DNA of 64,000 bases from an uncultured Methanosarcinales archaeon (lineage in GTDB: Archaea > Nanobdellota > Nanobdellia > Woesearchaeales > DSVV01): contig CAZQHZ010000001.1 in the NCBI GenBank assembly GCA_964593285.1, forward strand, positions 2,124 through 66,123. The letters run 5' to 3'. The translations under genes were made by a program, and so were the position numbers. Numbering within the stretch: the first letter of the stretch is position 1; every line of letters starts with the position of its first letter. Positions 6,570-49,130 of this stretch are shown here, one piece after another. The notes beneath the pieces are model-generated. The model was not told the origin of the DNA. It worked only from the letters and a program-made list of their open reading frames with translations, and did not search any database.

Positions 6570-7625
<1,056 letters not shown>

Positions 7626-14626: not shown

Positions 14627-14744
14627 GCGTCGGTAGTCTAACGGCTAGGATAGAGGCCTTCCACACGCTAGAATTAAAGATTCGCTGGTTATTTGCCAGG
14701 CGCGAAGAGAGCCTTTGATCCGGGTTCGAATCCCGGCCGACGCA
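14627..14744 (+). tRNA. tRNA-Gly(UCC) with a ~45-nt intron at the canonical 37/38 position
   Basis: Acceptor GCGTCGG/CCGACGC plus discriminator A; D arm GTCT-AACGGCTA-GGAT; anticodon stem GAGGC/GCCTT; loop CTTCCA|intron|A; T arm CCGGG-TTCGAAT-CCCGG. Exons closely resemble archaeal tRNA-Gly(UCC). 118 nt total, no encoded CCA. Confidence 0.8.
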
Positions 14745-34844: not shown

Positions 34845-35645
34845 CTATTTTTGTTTATTTATTTTATATAACATTACAAATCCTATTATAATCATAATAA
34901 TACATAAAATTTGTCCCATTGTAAAATAATTTAATATATAACCTATTTGTTCATCGGGTTGTCTAATAAATTCTATTAAAAAGCGTAATGCTCCATAAAA
35001 AATTACAAATAGCCAAAAAATAATTCCATCTTTTAATTTTTTCTTGGTAGCTAAATAAAATAATGGAATAAAAATTAATATATTTTTTATTGATTCAAAA
35101 ATTTGCGAAGGAAATCTACATCCTTCAACATTATTAACATAACTACTTTTTGAATAATCTATACAAAAAATACCTTCATACATTCTACCATATAACTCTC
35201 CATTAATAAAATTACCAATTCTTCCAAGTGCTAATGCTAAAGTTAGTGGAATTATAGTAATATCTGCAAGCTTATAAAATTTAATTTTTTTTTTAACAGA
35301 AAAAATATATCCAAAAAAAACTGCTCCAATAAAACCACCATGAAAACTCATTCCACCTTGCCATATTTTTAAAATGGATAATGGGTCATTTAAAATTATC
35401 GAAGGATTATAAAAAATGAAATAAAATAATCTTGATCCAATAATCATTCCAAGTCCAAGATATAATAAATAATCTAAAATATCATCTTTTGTAAGTTTTA
35501 TATGTTTAACTTTTACCAAGTAATTCAATAAGAAATATGCAATGATAAAACCAATAATATAAAATAAACCATAATATCTAATTTCAAAACTACCAATATT
35601 TAATAATGTTGGATTAATATTGTGTGTAATATTATAAAAACTCAT
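34845..35645 (-). CDS. lgt: Prolipoprotein diacylglyceryl transferase (Lgt)
   Basis: 266 aa, polytopic; exact Lgt signature LGRIGNFINGELYGR (PROSITE G-R-x-[GA]-N-F-x-N-x-E-x2-G) plus an upstream ...GGMSFHGGFIG... segment. Confidence 0.8.
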   Translation of the reverse strand: MSFYNITHNINPTLLNIGSFEIRYYGLFYIIGFIIAYFLLNYLVKVKHIKLTKDDILDYLLYLGLGMIIGSRLFYFIFYNPSIILNDPLSILKIWQGGMSFHGGFIGAVFFGYIFSVKKKIKFYKLADITIIPLTLALALGRIGNFINGELYGRMYEGIFCIDYSKSSYVNNVEGCRFPSQIFESIKNILIFIPLFYLATKKKLKDGIIFWLFVIFYGALRFLIEFIRQPDEQIGYILNYFTMGQILCIIMIIIGFVMLYKINKQK

Positions 35646-42058: not shown

Positions 42059-42183
42059 TGCGGGGAGTAGGACTCGAACCCACGTAAGCACTAAGCTAAC
42101 AGGTGTCTTTATTTCATTGTAATTTTACTCATCACACCTAAAATACCTAAGCCTGTCCCGTTTGACCACTCCGGCATCCCCGC
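42059..42183 (-). tRNA. tRNA-Leu(UAG), type II (long variable arm), with a 41-nt intron at position 37/38
   Basis: Reverse complement: acceptor GCGGGGA/TCCCCGC plus A; D arm CCG-GAGTGGTCAAA-CGG; anticodon stem ACAGG/CCTGT; loop CTTAGG|intron|A; 15-nt variable arm with AGC/GCT stem; T arm GTGGG-TTCGAGT-CCTAC. Intron TATTTTAGGTGTGATGAGTAAAATTACAATGAAATAAAGAC. Confidence 0.8.
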
Positions 42184-42312
42184 ATAAAGTTAAAAATTCA
42201 CAAATTATTTAAAAATGTTTTTATTCTTATAACTCTATAATTTTTTCGAAAATTATTTAAATAAGTTAAATTGATATAAAATTATAATATACTTTAAAAA
42301 AGGGGTTAATAA

Positions 42313-42753
42313 ATGGTTAAAAAAAACAATTCTAAATATTGTTTAGTAGATTTTAAAAAAGCACAAGCAATGTCAACTGAAACATACATAGCTATTTTAA
42401 TTTTTTTAAGTGTTATAGTTTTATTTTATTCTCTATTTGCATTTACTGATATAGATCAAACACGATCAAAAAATATAATTTTTACAGTTGAAAAAATAAA
42501 ATCTGATTTGGTTTTTGATAAAGGTTTCTTAGATAATGATGATTTAGAATTTCTATTACCCCTAGATTGTTCAGATTTAAAAGATTATTTTCAAGTTAGA
42601 AATGATTTTTGTATCTTTTTAGTTGATTCAAATGATAAAATAATACCTTTTAGAAACATTACTCATTACAAATATGGAATTGGCTGTAAAGATGTTTCTT
42701 TTAATAATGGTACAACAAAATTTGAGTGTGGTAAAATTAGAGAAATTGAATAA
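42313..42753 (+). CDS. Putative pilin-like protein (N-terminal hydrophobic helix after a short charged leader)
   Basis: 146 aa; ...KKAQAMSTETYIAILIFLSVIVLFYSLFAF... is compatible with an archaeal class III (prepilin) signal (K-A | Q...); first gene of the pilus-like locus. Confidence 0.3.
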   Translation: MVKKNNSKYCLVDFKKAQAMSTETYIAILIFLSVIVLFYSLFAFTDIDQTRSKNIIFTVEKIKSDLVFDKGFLDNDDLEFLLPLDCSDLKDYFQVRNDFCIFLVDSNDKIIPFRNITHYKYGIGCKDVSFNNGTTKFECGKIREIE

Positions 42754-42789
42754 AAATTTCTAAAAATTTGTTTATAATATTTAGTAATA

Positions 42790-43335
42790 ATGAAATTAAT
42801 AAAAAAATTCAAAAAAAGAGGGTATTTTTTTATATTTGATGTAGGTTTATCTATATTTGTTTTACTTTTGGGGTTAATAATTGTTTTTTCATATTATTTT
42901 AATGTTTATTCAACTCATCAATCTTCTTATTTTTCAACTAATATAATGGATATTTTATCAAATACAAAAATTTATCAAAGCAATAATAATTATTTTGGTT
43001 TTAATGGTGATTTACATAAAAATGGCAATATAACTAATATTCAAAATTCTTTACTAACCCAAATGTCTGAATTTTATTATAGATCTGAAGAAAAAGATTG
43101 TGATTACTGTCTAAATTTAATTAATAATTCTTTTAATCAAATTACAGATTTATTAATTTCTGAAAATTATTATTATATAGTTAAAATAAATAATACTGTT
43201 GTTTTTAATACTACTAAAGATATTCCATTTTATAATTCAACTCAATTGATACCATCAAAAAAAATAGTATATGGAATTTATGAAAATAATGAAATATTTG
43301 GTCCATATGGTTTTGAGGTATGGGCATGGCGTTAA
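42790..43335 (+). CDS. Putative archaeal type IV pilin-like protein
   Basis: 181 aa; MKLIKKFKKRGYFFIFDVGLSIFVLLLGLIIVF: a KRG|Y class-III-signal-like junction followed by a ~22-residue hydrophobic helix. Confidence 0.45.
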   Translation: MKLIKKFKKRGYFFIFDVGLSIFVLLLGLIIVFSYYFNVYSTHQSSYFSTNIMDILSNTKIYQSNNNYFGFNGDLHKNGNITNIQNSLLTQMSEFYYRSEEKDCDYCLNLINNSFNQITDLLISENYYYIVKINNTVVFNTTKDIPFYNSTQLIPSKKIVYGIYENNEIFGPYGFEVWAWR

Positions 43336-44348
43336 TAAAAAATAAAAAATCAATTTTTTTTACAATAGTTAGCATTTCTTTAGTTTCTTTATTTTTAATT
43401 ACATTTATGGGTGTTTCAAATATCAGTTTTAATAGGCCTGAATTTTTAATTGAAACAGAATTTAATATTTTACATTCTTATACAAAAGAATTAAAAGAAA
43501 ATTTTATAAAAGATGTTTTAATTATAAATTCTATAAATTCACTTGAAGAAATGCTAGATTATGTTGATGATAATAATGGTGTAATAGATAATTTTCAAGC
43601 TAATTTTTCTAATTTAATGATTGATGGCTCGATAAATATTGATGGAAATGAAATAAATATTTCTCAAAATATTTCAAGCTATGTAAATGATTTAGATAAT
43701 GAAGCAAAAAGTTTATTTGGAATAAAATCTAATACTACAATTCATTCAATTGATATAATTCAGTATGAACCATGGAAAGTAAATATTTTAGCTAATATTT
43801 CAATAAATGCATCTTTATTAAATATTTCATACAATATAAATGATTTATTTAATTATTCAATATCTATAACTGGATTTAGAGATCCAGTGTATTTACGAAA
43901 TTTTAATTATAATCATTCAATAAAAAAAACAAAGTTAAATAAATTTGATACAATAGATGATGTTTTAAGGCTTATAGAAGAACGTGAATATAGACACATT
44001 CCTGATAGTCCAAGTTTTATCATGAGATTTGAGAATAAAACAACAAACTCTAATTGTTGTGGGATACAATCATTTATAAATACAACTTTTGCTCAAAAAA
44101 TAATAAATTCAAATCCAAATTATAACAGTCCTTTAAATTTTTCTTTTGTGGATTATTATTCAGCTAATAGAGTAAATTCATGTGCAGATGCTCCAGATTC
44201 ACTTGAAGATTATGAAGTATATAATATTACTGGAATCAGTAATCAAAGTATAGCAATAGGTTTTAATTTAGATGTAAATTTTATAGATTTATATAATATT
44301 TCTAATGATGTAGATCAAGAAATTTGTAAAATTGATGATTTTATATAA
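43320..44348 (+). CDS. Pilus-associated protein with N-terminal TM helix and large Asn/Ser-rich extracellular domain
   Basis: 342 aa; ...KNKKSIFFTIVSISLVSLFLITF... then N-glycosylation-sequon-rich (NxS/T) sequence; overlaps the previous gene by 16 nt. Confidence 0.35.
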   Translation: MGMALIKNKKSIFFTIVSISLVSLFLITFMGVSNISFNRPEFLIETEFNILHSYTKELKENFIKDVLIINSINSLEEMLDYVDDNNGVIDNFQANFSNLMIDGSINIDGNEINISQNISSYVNDLDNEAKSLFGIKSNTTIHSIDIIQYEPWKVNILANISINASLLNISYNINDLFNYSISITGFRDPVYLRNFNYNHSIKKTKLNKFDTIDDVLRLIEEREYRHIPDSPSFIMRFENKTTNSNCCGIQSFINTTFAQKIINSNPNYNSPLNFSFVDYYSANRVNSCADAPDSLEDYEVYNITGISNQSIAIGFNLDVNFIDLYNISNDVDQEICKIDDFI

Positions 44349-44355
44349 TAATAAA

Positions 44356-44387
<32 letters not shown>

Positions 44388-44441
44388 ACTACTATATGTT
44401 AGTTATAAATCTTTTTATATATAAAAACATCTAAAATAAAA

Positions 44442-44888
44442 ATGGAAACTGATATTTTAAAAACTGATGTTGATAAATTTATTAAATTAGTTAGACAAAA
44501 AGAAAAAATAACTGTATCTGAAGCTTCAAAATTATTAAATTTAAGTGAAAAAATAGTTCAAGCATGGACTGATTTTTTAGTTGAAGAGAAAATTCTAGGC
44601 ACAGAATATAAATTTACCACCCAGTATATTTATTTAAATTATGATAAAGATTTAGAATTAAATAAAAGTAATGATGCCGAGGAAGATATAAAAGAAATGT
44701 TTTTTAGAAAAGCTAGATTAAAACAAATTTCTGAATTAAAAATAAAAGAAATGTGGAAAAAATATCTAAATGAAAATCAATTTAATATAAAAGAAAAATT
44801 TTTTAAAAAATGCAAGGAAAAATTAATTCCTGATGAAAAAGTTGATGAATTATGGTTAAAATATTTTAGTATTTTAAAAGAGGATTAA
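44442..44888 (+). CDS. Small soluble protein with possible N-terminal winged-helix
   Basis: 148 aa; ...ITVSEASKLLNLSEKIVQAWTDFLVEEKILGTEYK... looks wHTH-like; K/E-rich tail. Confidence 0.3.
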   Translation: METDILKTDVDKFIKLVRQKEKITVSEASKLLNLSEKIVQAWTDFLVEEKILGTEYKFTTQYIYLNYDKDLELNKSNDAEEDIKEMFFRKARLKQISELKIKEMWKKYLNENQFNIKEKFFKKCKEKLIPDEKVDELWLKYFSILKED

Positions 44889-44890
44889 AA

Positions 44891-45733
44891 ATGGATATAG
44901 ATGATTTTTTAGATTTAGAAATTTCAAAACAAGGAATGAAGGCAGGTTCTTCAGGGAAATTAAAAAACAATGATGAATTGTTTAGTGAATTAGATAATTT
45001 AAAACATGTAGTTGCCCAAAAAGATTTTTTTACAGCACTTAATAATTTAATAAATTTAAAACATAAATATCACGATTTAACAAAAAAACAATTAAATGAA
45101 AATAGATTTATTTTTAATGAATTAATTAAGATTAATTCAGATTTAATTTCAAAAATTGATTTAATTAAACAAGATTTATATAAAAAAATAAATCTTATTC
45201 AAAATTTAATTGTTGATGCTCAAACTAAATTAAATGAAGGAAATATTAGTGAAGCTAATAAAATTTATTTACAAACAAAAAACTTAATTAAAGATATTCC
45301 TGATATTTTAATTGAAGAAAAAAAAGCATTAAATAATCAATTAACTGCATTTTATGTTTCTTATTCTGTTTTAATACAAAAAAAATCTGAACAAATATTT
45401 ATTGAAAAAAAAGATTATCTTTTAAATGTAATTAAAAAAGCATATGAATATATAAAAAGTGGAAATAAATTTCCATTGAAAACTTTTGAGCATATTAATA
45501 AATTATTTAATGATTTACCAGAAGGACATTTATATCAAAAAGCAATAATATACAATGATATTTTAAAATTATTTAGAACAGCTGCACTTTCTGAAGAAAA
45601 TTCAAATATAGTAAATACAATCATTTCACAGACTTTAAATTTAAATAATGAGCATTTAGTAAAAAAACCTACAAATTTAGATTCAGAAAAGAAAGCCATT
45701 AATTTAGATTCACAAAAAAATATAAATAATTAA
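44891..45733 (+). CDS. Coiled-coil hypothetical protein in the pilus locus
   Basis: 280 aa, helical with heptad-like periodicity; no P-loop. Confidence 0.35.
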   Translation: MDIDDFLDLEISKQGMKAGSSGKLKNNDELFSELDNLKHVVAQKDFFTALNNLINLKHKYHDLTKKQLNENRFIFNELIKINSDLISKIDLIKQDLYKKINLIQNLIVDAQTKLNEGNISEANKIYLQTKNLIKDIPDILIEEKKALNNQLTAFYVSYSVLIQKKSEQIFIEKKDYLLNVIKKAYEYIKSGNKFPLKTFEHINKLFNDLPEGHLYQKAIIYNDILKLFRTAALSEENSNIVNTIISQTLNLNNEHLVKKPTNLDSEKKAINLDSQKNINN

Positions 45734-45739
45734 GGGGTT

Positions 45740-47242
45740 TTGATGTCAAAAAATAATAATATAGAATTTCAATTAATTGAGAAAGATAAATTAACAGCTA
45801 ATGAATGGCTTGATTCTTATAAATTGAATGTTAATAATGTGTTAGTCGATGTAAATATATTTTTTAGAGATGAAGATTCTATACCTATCTATGAAGTAAA
45901 TATTGTTAATATGACTAAAAATACTAAAATTATTTTAGAAAAAATTAGAGAAGAATTTATCTCAAAAGTTAATATCAATACTTCTGAAATTTCTGATTCA
46001 AAAGGATTAGATAAATTAAAAGATTTGTTTAGAAAAGAATTAATAGTTTTACTTAAAAAATATTTTCCAAGTTTAGATAATAAAACACAAGATATGCTTA
46101 TGAATTATGTTATTGAACAAAATTTGGGTCTTGGATATATTGAAATTTTGCTTAAAGATAATTTAATTGAAGAAGTTGTTATAAATAATGCAAAAGAGCC
46201 TGTATGGATTTATCATGTAAAATTTGGTTGGATGAAAACAAATATCTTAATTCCAACAGAATCAAGAATTAGACATTTTGCAACAATTATTGCAAGAGAT
46301 GCAATTAAAGAAATTACCAATTTAAATCCATTAATGGATGCACATTTATTGTCAGGAGATAGAGTAAATGCAACGCTTCATCCAGTTTCTAGTTTTGGAA
46401 ATACATTAACTATTAGAAAATTTTCATCAATCCCATGGACCATCACAAGAATGATTAAATCAAATACATTAGATTATAAAACTGCTGCAATTTTATGGTT
46501 ATGTATTCAATATGAATTTTCAATAATAATTGCAGGTGGTACTGGTTCTGGTAAAACTTCTATGTTAAATACGGTTGCTGGTTTTTTTGCATCAAATCAA
46601 CGAATTATATCTATTGAAGATACAAGAGAATTAAAATTGCCACCACAATTACACTGGGTTCCATTAGCAACTCGACAATCTAATCCCGAAGGAAAAGGTG
46701 AAGTTTCTATGCTTGATTTAGTTATCAATTCACTTAGGATGAGACCTGATAGAATTATAATGGGTGAAATTAGACGAAAAAAAGAAGCAGAAGTTTTATT
46801 TGAAGCAATGCACACAGGCCATAGTGTTTATGGAACATTTCATGCAAATACTGCAAGAGAAGTTATTCAAAGACTTACAAATCCACCAATCGATTTACCA
46901 AAAGCATTAGCTTCAGCAGTAAATTTAATTGCTGTTCAAAATAGGAATAGAAGAAATAATACTAGAAAATTATTTGAATTAGCAGAAGTATTGCCCGATG
47001 GTGAAGTAAATATACTTTATAGGTATAATATTTTGGAAGATAAAATAAAAAAAGTTAATGATTTTAAAGTAATAAATAAATTACTTGAATTATATGCTGG
47101 TTTTGATGATAATAAAATAAATGAAGAATTAAAAAAACGAGAAAATATTTTAAAATGGATTGTTGAAAAAAACATTAATTCATTAGAAAAAATAGGACAA
47201 GTAATGTCTAATTTTTATCGTGATAAATTCAAATTTGAATAA
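45740..47242 (+). CDS. Type IV pilus/archaellum assembly ATPase (FlaI/ArlI-TadA/VirB11 superfamily)
   Basis: 500 aa; Walker A IIAGGTGSGKTS, Asp box/Walker B ...RPDRIIMGEIR, His box EAMHTGHSVYGTFHA. Confidence 0.85.
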   Translation: MMSKNNNIEFQLIEKDKLTANEWLDSYKLNVNNVLVDVNIFFRDEDSIPIYEVNIVNMTKNTKIILEKIREEFISKVNINTSEISDSKGLDKLKDLFRKELIVLLKKYFPSLDNKTQDMLMNYVIEQNLGLGYIEILLKDNLIEEVVINNAKEPVWIYHVKFGWMKTNILIPTESRIRHFATIIARDAIKEITNLNPLMDAHLLSGDRVNATLHPVSSFGNTLTIRKFSSIPWTITRMIKSNTLDYKTAAILWLCIQYEFSIIIAGGTGSGKTSMLNTVAGFFASNQRIISIEDTRELKLPPQLHWVPLATRQSNPEGKGEVSMLDLVINSLRMRPDRIIMGEIRRKKEAEVLFEAMHTGHSVYGTFHANTAREVIQRLTNPPIDLPKALASAVNLIAVQNRNRRNNTRKLFELAEVLPDGEVNILYRYNILEDKIKKVNDFKVINKLLELYAGFDDNKINEELKKRENILKWIVEKNINSLEKIGQVMSNFYRDKFKFE

Positions 47243-47250
47243 AATTAAGG

Positions 47251-48084
47251 GTGATTTTTATTGTTGATTTAATTAATTTAATTAAACCTATGTTTCCAGA
47301 TTTAGAATCTAATATAAAAAAGGCTAAATTAAATCAAAAACCAGAAGATTTTATTAAAAAATCAGTAAATGTTGGATTATTTTTTTCTACATTTTCTCTA
47401 ATTATTTCTTTTTTTATTTTAAGCACGCTTAATAAAAATTTATTAGTATTAATACCTATTTTTATTGTTTCTTTCTTCATTATTTTTTTTATAATTATAA
47501 ATTCACCAATTGTTACAATAAAAAAAAGACAAAGAGAATTAGACAAAGAAATATTATTTGCAGGAAGATTTTTACAAATTAAGTTAAAATCAGGTAAACC
47601 ACTACTTAATTGTTTAATTGAAGTTTCTAATGGTTATGGTGTTTGTGGAAAATATTTTAAAGAAATAACTGATGATATCAATATGGGTAAAAGTATTGAA
47701 AAAGCCCTAGAAAATGCAATGATTTATTCACCATCTGATAAAATGAAAAGAATTTTATTTCAAATAAACAATTCATTAAAAATAGGAATTGATGTTGGTG
47801 AATCACTTGATAGAACACTTAATGAAATAACAAAAGAACAAATAAATGATATACGAATTTATACAAAAAAATTAAATTCTTTAAGTTTGTTTTATTTAAT
47901 GCTTGCAATTGTTGTTCCGGCTATTGGAACAGCAATTGTTGTAGTTATTGGTGCACTAATTGGTTTATTAACAGATGATCAAGGAGCAAAGCAATTATTT
48001 TATGCGATTTGTATTTTGATTATTATTTTACAATTTATATTTATTGCTGTCTTTAAAAATACAAGATTAACGGTGAATATATAA
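47251..48084 (+). CDS. Pilus platform membrane protein, first half (single T2SSF domain; FlaJ/TadB-like)
   Basis: 277 aa; 2 TM, cytoplasmic T2SSF-type helical domain (...KSIEKALENAMIYSPSDKMKRILFQINNSLKIGIDVGESL...), then 2 TM. Confidence 0.65.
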   Translation: MIFIVDLINLIKPMFPDLESNIKKAKLNQKPEDFIKKSVNVGLFFSTFSLIISFFILSTLNKNLLVLIPIFIVSFFIIFFIIINSPIVTIKKRQRELDKEILFAGRFLQIKLKSGKPLLNCLIEVSNGYGVCGKYFKEITDDINMGKSIEKALENAMIYSPSDKMKRILFQINNSLKIGIDVGESLDRTLNEITKEQINDIRIYTKKLNSLSLFYLMLAIVVPAIGTAIVVVIGALIGLLTDDQGAKQLFYAICILIIILQFIFIAVFKNTRLTVNI

Positions 48085-49130
48085 TGAAATTTTTATTTGC
48101 ATATGAATTTGGAAAATCTTTTATTCCAGATAAAATTAGACCAAATTTGCGAAAATATTTATTTAAAGCAGGTATTGTAAATGAACCTTATTCTTTTTTT
48201 GGAATTTTATTTTATTTTTCTTTAATTTTTTCAATTTCTTTTTATTTTCTATATATTAAATTGTTATTAGATCAGTTTGTTGGACTTGAAAATATTACTA
48301 ATATTTTTTTAAATTTTTTAATAACTTTTAGTTCGATTGTTTTACTAAATTTTTTAATTATAGGTTTTTTTATAGTGATTGTTTATTTTTTTATTGATTT
48401 AATAATTTATAATAGAACTAAAAAATTAGAAGAAATATTACCTTATTTTTTTGATAATTTATCAGCTAATTTAAAATCTGGTATGTCTTTTGATAATGCA
48501 TTATTTATGTCAATAAAACCTGAATTTGGTATTTTAGCAGATGAAATTGCAATAACTGCAAAAAAAGTAATGACTGGAAATGATATTGAATTAGCACTTG
48601 AAGAGTTTTCTAAAAAATATGACTCACCAATGCTTAAGCGTTCAATGGAATTAATTATCAATCAATTAAAAGAAGGAGGTGCAGTTTCTGATATTATTGA
48701 TAAGATTGCTTTTAATTTAAAAAATACAATGGAATTAAAACAAGAAATTAGAACTTCTGTATATAGTTATGTATTATTTATATCAATAATTGTTATTTTA
48801 ATTTCTCCAGTTTTATTTGCATTATCGCAAAATTTATTTGAAATTATTAAAAGCGTTGTTAATGTTTTAGCATTTTCAATGGGTTCAACTGATGCAGTAG
48901 GTTTTAGTGTAAGTGAAATTACAATCACTAAAGAAGTTTTTAATTGGTTTTCATTTATTGCATTAAGTATTATTGCAATTTTTTCTTCAATGATTGTTTC
49001 AATTATAGAAAAAGGTGATATAAAATCAGGAGTAAAATATATTCCTATGTATTTTATCGGTTCGCACGTTGTTTATTTAATTGCATCCAATGTTTTAGGG
49101 ATTGTTTTTGGTGGATTTATTATGAGTTAA
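48084..49130 (+). CDS. Pilus platform membrane protein, second half (single T2SSF domain; FlaJ/TadC-like)
   Basis: 348 aa; same TM-T2SSF-TM layout (...NDIELALEEFSKKYDSPMLKRSMELIINQLKEGGAVSDII...); start overlaps the previous stop (ATGA). Confidence 0.65.
   Translation: MKFLFAYEFGKSFIPDKIRPNLRKYLFKAGIVNEPYSFFGILFYFSLIFSISFYFLYIKLLLDQFVGLENITNIFLNFLITFSSIVLLNFLIIGFFIVIVYFFIDLIIYNRTKKLEEILPYFFDNLSANLKSGMSFDNALFMSIKPEFGILADEIAITAKKVMTGNDIELALEEFSKKYDSPMLKRSMELIINQLKEGGAVSDIIDKIAFNLKNTMELKQEIRTSVYSYVLFISIIVILISPVLFALSQNLFEIIKSVVNVLAFSMGSTDAVGFSVSEITITKEVFNWFSFIALSIIAIFSSMIVSIIEKGDIKSGVKYIPMYFIGSHVVYLIASNVLGIVFGGFIMS

Follow-up and report, generated by a model that had tools for sequence, protein, structure and literature searches.

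Here we examined positions 42313-49130 of a 64 kb stretch of archaeal DNA (hereafter the window, meaning the whole stretch at its full length), where eight co-directional open reading frames (ORFs) lie on the plus strand at the coordinates that an earlier note on this DNA had listed. That note had read them as a complete type IV pilus-like locus of a DPANN-type archaeon. For DPANN archaea, contact with host cells is a necessity, and loci resembling those for type IV pili (T4P) are the leading candidates for mediating this contact. Taking all the results together, we consider it likely that an operon for the biogenesis of type IV filaments (pili), distributed throughout the DPANN archaea, is represented here by its Woesearchaeota copy: the locus encodes a secretion ATPase, two T2SSF platform domains and, at the level of sequence motifs, substrates with class III-type signals, which are the core features of the superfamily of type IV filaments (TFF) and of T4P. 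The assignment of the genome to the DPANN-type archaea was borne out, as ORF1 and ORF2 are 100% identical to 'hypothetical proteins' in Candidatus Woesearchaeota/Nanoarchaeota metagenome-assembled genomes and all of the 80 related loci described below are DPANN-type.

The assembly ATPase, the two-gene platform and the pilin-like proteins

The translation of ORF6 matches the Pfam family T2SSE (2.8e-37) and contains the Walker A motif GGTGSGKTS, the segment RPDRIIMGEIR and the His box HTGH, so that its earlier description as a FlaI/TadA-family ATPase carrying these Walker A and HTGH motifs holds when they are read directly. Among the NCBIfam models the FlaI model (NF058587) gave 269.6 bits against an equivalog cutoff of 550, followed by the TadA family (199) and the bindosome ATPase BasE (164). 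Among PDB sequences the best full-length match was AfGspE (216 bits), with FlaI at 195 and CpaF at 160, and the C-terminal ~70 residues of ORF6 align solely to AfGspE and FlaI among these matches. Alignments of the DPANN ATPases revealed CpaF-like catalytic motifs (GGTGSGKT, LRMRPxRII and HAN), unlike AfGspE and FlaI, in which the Walker A motif reads GETASGKT. Over 309 gap-free core columns the DPANN ATPases are ~35% identical to each one of AfGspE, FlaI and CpaF, and in the quartet made with these three references (without outgroup, Epd or clade 4 sequences) AfGspE and FlaI paired together, leaving the DPANN ATPases on the CpaF side, in 282 of the 300 bootstraps. Because ORF6 falls outside the AfGspE and FlaI pair and lies so far below the FlaI cutoff, its sequence indicates that it is neither an archaellum motor nor a protein nested in Clade 2, and its placement is compatible with the System 1/Epd-Tad-like label of DPANN loci.

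The platform is encoded, as had been recognized before, by two adjoining membrane proteins with exactly one Pfam T2SSF domain each (5.7e-10 for ORF7 and 6.7e-13 for ORF8), neither of which found a match among PDB sequences. The NCBIfam alignments place ORF7 on the N half of the UpsF model (positions 23-220 of 484) and ORF8 on the C half of ArlJ/FlaJ (positions 199-462 of 465, with a score of 32 against a cutoff of 400); compared with each other, the two proteins proved paralogous, sharing 25% identity over 190 aa (E=1e-5). Such alignments, together with the paralogy, indicate that ORF7 and ORF8 are the halves of a platform that is normally duplicated internally. The junction between them reads ATA-TAA-TGA, with the stop codon TAA at 48082-48084 and the ATG at 48084-48086; the overlap is thus TAATG, with 1 nt shared, and the ATGA overlap reported previously was wrong.

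The conservation of this arrangement was examined in loci retrieved by an ATPase search of one genome per GTDB species, which yielded more than 590 relatives, the best 80 loci of which were analysed. All of these 80 come from DPANN-type lineages (Woesearchaeota/Nanobdellota, Aenigmatarchaeota, Micrarchaeota and Iainarchaeota, with none from Nanohaloarchaeota), with ATPase identities of 48-71%. ORF7 homologues were found in 75 of the 80 loci, the homologues of ORF7 and ORF8 were separate adjoining ORFs in 71 and a fused form was never seen. Of the 71 loci whose sequence extends 2.5 kb or more downstream, 66 kept the pair. These platform halves, from 71 independent DPANN assemblies belonging to several phyla, have median lengths of 274 aa and 344 aa, and the junctions between them comprise 22 four-nt overlaps, 10 one-nt overlaps and, for the rest, short gaps. 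The conservation of the two-gene platform across DPANN loci indicates that the split is ancient, fixed and translationally coupled; it is no artefact, and neither is it unusual. The earlier note had hence judged correctly that the split was genuine and not a frameshift, but not that it was an oddity: it is the rule in this DPANN family, and pairs of single-T2SSF genes are already in the literature. Denise 2019 (PMC6668835) described two single-T2SSF platform genes, derived by fission, in Epd-like archaeal pili and bacterial Tad systems; Makarova 2016 (PMC4858521) reported that tadC-like genes come in twos in clade 1 and in subclades 4A and 4B, and that they do so in many loci of clade 2; and in the preprint of Sivabalasarma & Albers 2026 two platform genes characterise System 1 (methanogens, Thermococcales and DPANN) and are present likewise in 4A of some DPANN and in 4B.

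ORF1, ORF2 and ORF3 each start with a short basic leader followed by a single N-terminal transmembrane (TM) helix, and they are the only proteins of the window with N-termini of pilin type. Class III-type motifs are conserved in all three families, in support of the claim that the locus encodes three pilin-like proteins with hydrophobic N-termini, and the class III signal is present in the three window proteins at the level of the sequence motif. In the ORF1 family this motif is K[RK][GAS]/Q[TSA]WS[ILM][ED] (the slash standing for the junction between positions -1 and +1), with an invariant Gln at +1, Ser at +4 and acidic residue at +6, and the predicted extracellular domain has an invariant Cys100/Cys139 pair. 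The ORF2 family shows the motif KK[RK][GA]/[YF]FF.[LI]D with Asp17 invariant, so that the KRG/Y junction noticed before in ORF2 (KKRG/YFFIFD) belongs to a conserved family motif. In the ORF3 family the motif is KK[KR][GA]/[IV]FFTFIAI, accompanied by a conserved CCG. Homologues of ORF2 occur in 27 of the 80 related loci, and in every case a homologue of ORF3 adjoins. An exhaustive HMMER search identified 517 representatives of the ORF3 family at E<=1e-3 (174 at E<=1e-10), mostly of 305-360 aa. In the 110 strict-motif matches among the best 150 family members the residue at -1, whose median position is 9, was G in 67, A in 35, S in 7 and T in 1; since Gly and Ala predominate, the Ser at -1 of the window's ORF3 represents a minority variant.

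Examination of N-X-S/T sequons identified 16 of them in ORF3, the highest number among 66 window proteins (4.7 per 100 aa compared with a window mean of 0.81). The expected number was 6.7±2.3 and none of 2000 composition-preserving shuffles reached 16. ORF2 ranked third and ORF1 fourth (3 sequons) among the same 66 proteins. This enrichment supports an extracellular, glycosylated location of ORF1-3, and it is in keeping with the proposal that the 342-aa ORF3 is a probable glycoprotein. By their motifs and topology, ORF1-3 are predicted to be substrates of pilin or minor-pilin type. The coordinates of the eight genes are collected in Table 1.

Table 1. The eight genes of the locus, with positions numbered along the window
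Feature	Coordinates	Strand	Length and sequence features
ORF1, pilin-like	42313..42753	+	146 aa; KKA/QAMSTE class III-type site, TM helix 26-44
ORF2, pilin-like	42790..43335	+	181 aa; KKRG/YFFIFD site, TM helix 14-32
ORF3, large pilin-like, probably N-glycosylated, extracellular	43320..44348	+	342 aa; KNKKS/IFFTIV site
ORF4, predicted cytoplasmic winged-helix protein	44442..44888	+	148 aa; winged helix-turn-helix residues 9-65
ORF5, predicted cytoplasmic alpha-helical repeat protein	44891..45733	+	280 aa; two 74-residue repeats
ORF6, secretion-superfamily assembly ATPase	45740..47242	+	500 aa; Pfam T2SSE
ORF7, platform N-half	47251..48084	+	277 aa; one T2SSF, residues 110-226
ORF8, platform C-half	48084..49130	+	348 aa; one T2SSF, residues 122-246

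Two translation starts may be placed slightly inside these limits: that of ORF3 is likely the ATG at 43326, and that of ORF6, going by its translation, likely the ATG at 45743.

Accessory proteins encoded upstream of the ATPase

ORF4 had been described as a small protein resembling a winged helix-turn-helix (wHTH), and its AlphaFold2 (AF2) model, with a predicted local distance difference test (pLDDT) value of 82.8, is a confident winged helix (residues 9-65) followed by a linker and a 4-helix C-terminal domain. None of its 53 homologues has a Pfam domain, and ORF5 likewise gave no Pfam family above threshold. The name of coiled-coil protein given previously to ORF5 is better replaced, as this protein consists of two copies of a 74-residue helical repeat (with IPDIL at 136 and LPEGH at 209). 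The repeat signature of its family is Y..[IL]P.GF...K..L...LY, and fused homologues carry six copies of it at an exact spacing of 74 aa. In 36 of 55 loci a single gene, abutting that of the ATPase, encodes the wHTH together with the helical region (median protein length 591 aa); 17 of the 55, among them the window and its nearest relatives, have a separate gene for each. A wHTH-type ORF stands immediately upstream of the ATPase in 52 of the 63 loci with enough sequence. ORF4, ORF5 and their relatives have neither signal peptide nor TM segment, which indicates a cytoplasmic location. Considering gene order and repeats jointly, ORF4 and ORF5 are the split form of one protein composed of a wHTH and 74-residue repeats. 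The 74-aa repeat is missing in Micrarchaeota and Aenigmatarchaeota, where an ordinary coiled coil follows the wHTH.

Placing ORF4, with or without ORF5, as a plain DNA-binding transcriptional regulator of the operon would be compatible with the filament biogenesis operon that we favour, and yet we regard this role as somewhat unlikely. The model of ORF4 is a canonical wHTH, matched best in structure by repressors of MarR/ArsR type and by the centromere-binding AspA, some sources annotate its homologues as 'ArsR family' or 'antirepressor', and dedicated regulators are frequent in T4P loci (PMC4858521). The Foldseek matches obtained with this model are, however, weak and generic (MarR/ArsR/AspA/TFE-alpha wHTH proteins only, with E ~4e-4 and TM-score ~0.4), and in 36 of the 55 relatives the wHTH continues into 300-750 aa of coiled coil or helical repeats, in a fused protein whose gene abuts that of the ATPase, an architecture more typical of a scaffold. 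Moreover, the position and conservation of the wHTH protein (52 of 63 loci) follow the ATPase more closely than the pilin genes do.

A bolder model, to which we give only tentative credit, would make the wHTH/74-aa-repeat protein a cytoplasmic subunit that is specific to DPANN and obligatory for the pilus motor, functionally a counterpart of TadZ/FlaH/FlaX/PilM, and ORF1-ORF2-ORF3 the previously unidentified cognate pilins of the DPANN ATPase. Were both parts true, the wHTH/repeat protein would be no transcription factor and no 'attachment fibre' outside the cell, and the motor subunit and the pilin trio would form a conserved device for the engagement of DPANN archaea with their hosts.

Genomic setting and variant loci

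The locus is flanked on one side by an intron-containing tRNA gene (42059-42183, minus strand) and on the other by a convergent MATCAP/DUF1704 gene. The GC content of the window is 20-27%, and archaeal markers are present in it (L35Ae, NurA, OapC, PUA/DUF1947, Memo and an SPP of presenilin type). Most ORFs of at least 70 aa were covered by the Pfam scan of the window, with RNR and two aminoacyl-tRNA synthetase ORFs standing outside it. The ATG of ORF1 is preceded by a Shine-Dalgarno-like GGGG at 42302-42305, 8 nt upstream, and the AT-rich intergenic region before this gene (42184-42312) contains TATA-like strings, such as TTTAAATA at 42256-42263, which in a genome of 22% GC are poor evidence of a promoter. 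A scan for sigma-70 promoters and terminators was uninformative, the sequence being archaeal and of 22% GC.

Two tRNA genes with insertions of ~44-48 nt past the anticodon loop (archaeal introns) were found at 14627-14744 on the plus strand and at 42059-42183 on the minus strand, the latter with a long variable arm of the Leu/Ser type. Both came from Rfam (53.3 and 43.3 bits, respectively), and ARAGORN reported zero tRNAs in the whole window. The minus strand at 34845-35645 encodes a prolipoprotein diacylglyceryl transferase of bacterial type (Lgt, PF01790, 226 bits) within this archaeal Woesearchaeota genome.

Variation in layout was observed among the related loci. Those of Micrarchaeota type have an extra gene between the ATPase and the platform N-half, with a gap of 1.35-2.1 kb in 12 loci; in two of them (L062 9549-11168 and L068 9503-11029) the product of this gene is acidic, rich in Pro and about 510-540 aa long, and that of L062 had no Pfam match. 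Two Nanobdellota loci (L057 1255-8928 and L058 7155-15005) have a variant layout in which the orthologous ATPase, bearing a Lys-rich N-terminal extension of 240-280 aa, is followed by CBS and metallo-beta-lactamase-fold genes and a second, divergent T2SSE ATPase (~755 aa). The same two loci encode a protein of ~730 aa with 8-10 TM segments, and homologues of ORF7 and ORF8 are absent from them; the ~730-aa membrane protein was considered as an unsplit platform and rejected, as it gave no T2SSF match. Many of the contigs bearing related loci (L001, L005-L007, L010, L011, L015, L020 and others, from TPA binchicken/SRP co-assemblies) are titled 'uncultured Methanosarcinales archaeon', and that of L034 is titled 'Candidatus Aminicenantes bacterium'. 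These labels look wrong to us because the ATPases are 55-70% identical to those of Woesearchaeota loci and the gene order is the same.

Proposed mechanism, alternatives and comparison with known systems

If the locus is indeed a filament biogenesis operon, a class III (PibD-like) signal peptidase encoded elsewhere would trim the leaders of ORF1-3, ORF7 and ORF8 would form a heterodimer that rebuilds the usual platform with two T2SSF domains, and the ATPase hexamer would dock on this platform and drive the insertion of the processed subunits. The product would be a non-rotating and probably N-glycosylated filament in which ORF2 and ORF3 may constitute the minor-pilin or tip set, with ORF1 or an unlinked pilin as the putative main subunit. 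The wHTH/repeat protein may scaffold or regulate the motor in the cytoplasm, and the filament would presumably serve attachment to surfaces or to host cells.

Several results weigh against this interpretation. ORF1-3 matched zero curated pilin families in Pfam and NCBIfam; Pfam scans made member by member over the three family alignments found no family, merely faint touches of DUF7287/DUF7288; and profile searches of PDB sequences with the same alignments gave nothing significant. With neither a curated family nor a solved structure for ORF1-3, their assignment as pilins rests on motifs, topology and context. Nor is there a confident fold: the AF2 model of ORF2 (pLDDT 48), which shows a long N-terminal helix, two helices and a 4-stranded sheet in this order, is unusable because the word-indexed homologue searches yielded so few sequences (3 matches for ORF1 and 4 for ORF2). 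The Phe at +2 in ORF2 and ORF3 and the Ser at -1 in the window's ORF3 are outside the FlaFind pattern. No small (~70 aa) major pilin of Epd/Flp type was seen in the locus or the window, and linkage of the three pilin-like genes to the ATPase was seen in only 22 of 45 relatives, about half of them.

The search for a prepilin peptidase adds to these objections. No Peptidase_A24 member (PibD/FlaK/EppA) was found by the Pfam scan of the 64 kb or in the ~10 kb contig flanks from a related assembly, and a regular expression for the GxGD[..]K motif found no prepilin peptidase in the 4280 ORFs of the 80 loci. The earlier suggestion to look for this enzyme beyond the locus has thus met with negative results at all three levels, and its absence within 64 kb does not bear out the description of the locus as complete. 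PibD genes are commonly unlinked. The only GxGD protease of the window, 35 kb from the pilus locus (6570-7625, minus strand), is an intramembrane aspartyl protease of presenilin/SPP type (PF06550, 40.5 bits; LGGGDIAFP); it belongs to the Pfam clan that also holds the prepilin peptidases, yet it is not a Peptidase_A24 member.

The same machinery could also build a short pseudopilus or piston, with ORF1-3 as pseudopilins, for protein secretion, for the display of surface proteins (bindosome-like) or for the uptake of DNA or nucleotides. This possibility draws on the lack of an obvious small major pilin in the locus or window and on the minor-pilin appearance of ORF2 and ORF3, which are always paired, ORF3 being large (342 aa). 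In addition, ATPase conservation of 48-71% across DPANN phyla suggests a core physiological role in organisms that have to import building blocks, and the TFF superfamily has repeatedly evolved secretion and uptake machines (PMC6668835). Against it, neither the locus nor the window showed genes for a ComEC-like channel, a secreted substrate or a binding protein, the BasE model scored below both FlaI and TadA, and the published interpretation and proteomics favour pili. We therefore hold a pseudopilus to be improbable, and a filament biogenesis operon remains our preferred interpretation.

Two other explanations can be set aside with near certainty. Although FlaI is the best NCBIfam match of the ATPase and ORF8 matches the ArlJ model, an archaellum (motility) operon was dropped on gene content, as no archaellin (PF01917), FlaH/KaiC or FlaF/G was found in ORF1-8 or in the Pfam-scanned remainder of the window, and because both proteins score far under the equivalog cutoffs and the ATPase lies outside the FlaI and AfGspE pair in the bootstrap analysis; the earlier statement that archaellum genes are missing and that this is no archaellum therefore stands. 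It is hardly credible either that the two-gene platform is an artefact of assembly or frameshift, or that one FlaJ/TadC gene recently became a pseudogene: ORF7 and ORF8 adjoin, differ in frame and share one base, but a start codon, TM segments and a complete T2SSF domain are present in each half separately, and the recurrence of the same unfused pair in 71 independent assemblies rules both out.

The locus leaves the current understanding of archaeal type IV filaments unchanged, and its value is descriptive, as a clean, complete-looking example from Woesearchaeota. The new details that it offers are that the two-gene platform is a fixed state in this DPANN family, the architecture of the accessory protein with its wHTH and 74-aa repeats, and sequence signatures for three unannotated pilin-like families, among them the ORF3 family with its 517 representatives, all of which are labelled 'hypothetical'.

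Comparison with known systems reveals partial likenesses. The bacterial Tad/Flp systems (TadA/CpaF, TadB and TadC) share with the locus the split platform, the CpaF-like motifs and the ~35% core identity of the ATPase to CpaF. They differ in that the window has no secretin, TadZ, Flp-type pilin or TadV, in that the genome is archaeal and in that ORF6 carries an archaeal-type C-terminal extension, aligning to AfGspE and FlaI alone. The euryarchaeal Clade 2 systems (AfGspE AF0659 and Haloferax PilB-PilC) include the best full-length PDB match of the ATPase, and according to Makarova 2016 (PMC4858521) this clade, in which two tadC-like genes are often present, comprises N. equitans and Nst1. On the shared core, however, AfGspE pairs with FlaI and not with the DPANN ATPases, and the Walker A motif differs. 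The supplements of Makarova 2016 hold no Woesearchaeota, Aenigmarchaeota or Micrarchaeota entries for a direct assignment to a clade. Subclade 4F, with its cytoplasmic coiled-coil protein arCOG07564, resembles the locus by description in having an intracellular coiled-coil or helical accessory protein, and Makarova 2016 (PMC4858521) placed a nanoarchaeal ATPase in it with cognate pilins not identified; this subclade is, however, mainly halobacterial, and its split-platform status is unlike that of the locus.

With the Epd pilus of Methanococcus maripaludis and System 1, which has been reported in DPANN, there are likenesses too: there are two single-T2SSF platform genes, ORF6 lies on the CpaF side of the split from AfGspE and FlaI in the quartet, and ORF1 has Gln at +1. 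A Gln at this position is typical of EppA substrates. They differ from the locus, where the genes run in the order ATPase, N-half and C-half, in that the window has no major pilin of ~70 aa lacking a globular domain, no EppA-type peptidase and no FlaH/KaiC/TadZ-like second ATPase, genes that may be unlinked.

Hamm 2024 (PMC11291902) described two conserved type IV pilus-like loci across Undinarchaeota and the cluster 2 DPANN (Nanohaloarchaeota, Woesearchaeota, Pacearchaeota, Nanoarchaeota as well as Aenigmarchaeota), encoding coiled-coil proteins along with CpaF and TadC and, in locus 1, also 'FlaF and PilA', and gave proteomic evidence of their expression in Ca. Nanohaloarchaeum antarcticus together with a proposed role in host interaction. 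By this published description the likeness extends to the CpaF-type ATPase, to TadC, to the neighbouring coiled-coil protein and to the occurrence in Woesearchaeota. A difference lies in the helical protein, which here has an N-terminal wHTH, 74-aa repeats and neither signal peptide nor TM segment, and is predicted to be cytoplasmic. Hamm 2024 (PMC11291902) saw in the coiled-coil proteins a likeness to sigma-1, the attachment fibre of reovirus, and a cytoplasmic, wHTH-tagged protein of 74-aa repeats bears on this published likeness to a viral fibre. We infer a role of the filament in host attachment, as was previously proposed in print by Hamm 2024 (PMC11291902), and the locus at 42313-49130 fits the locus type described there, being an ordinary member of a kind of locus already in the literature.

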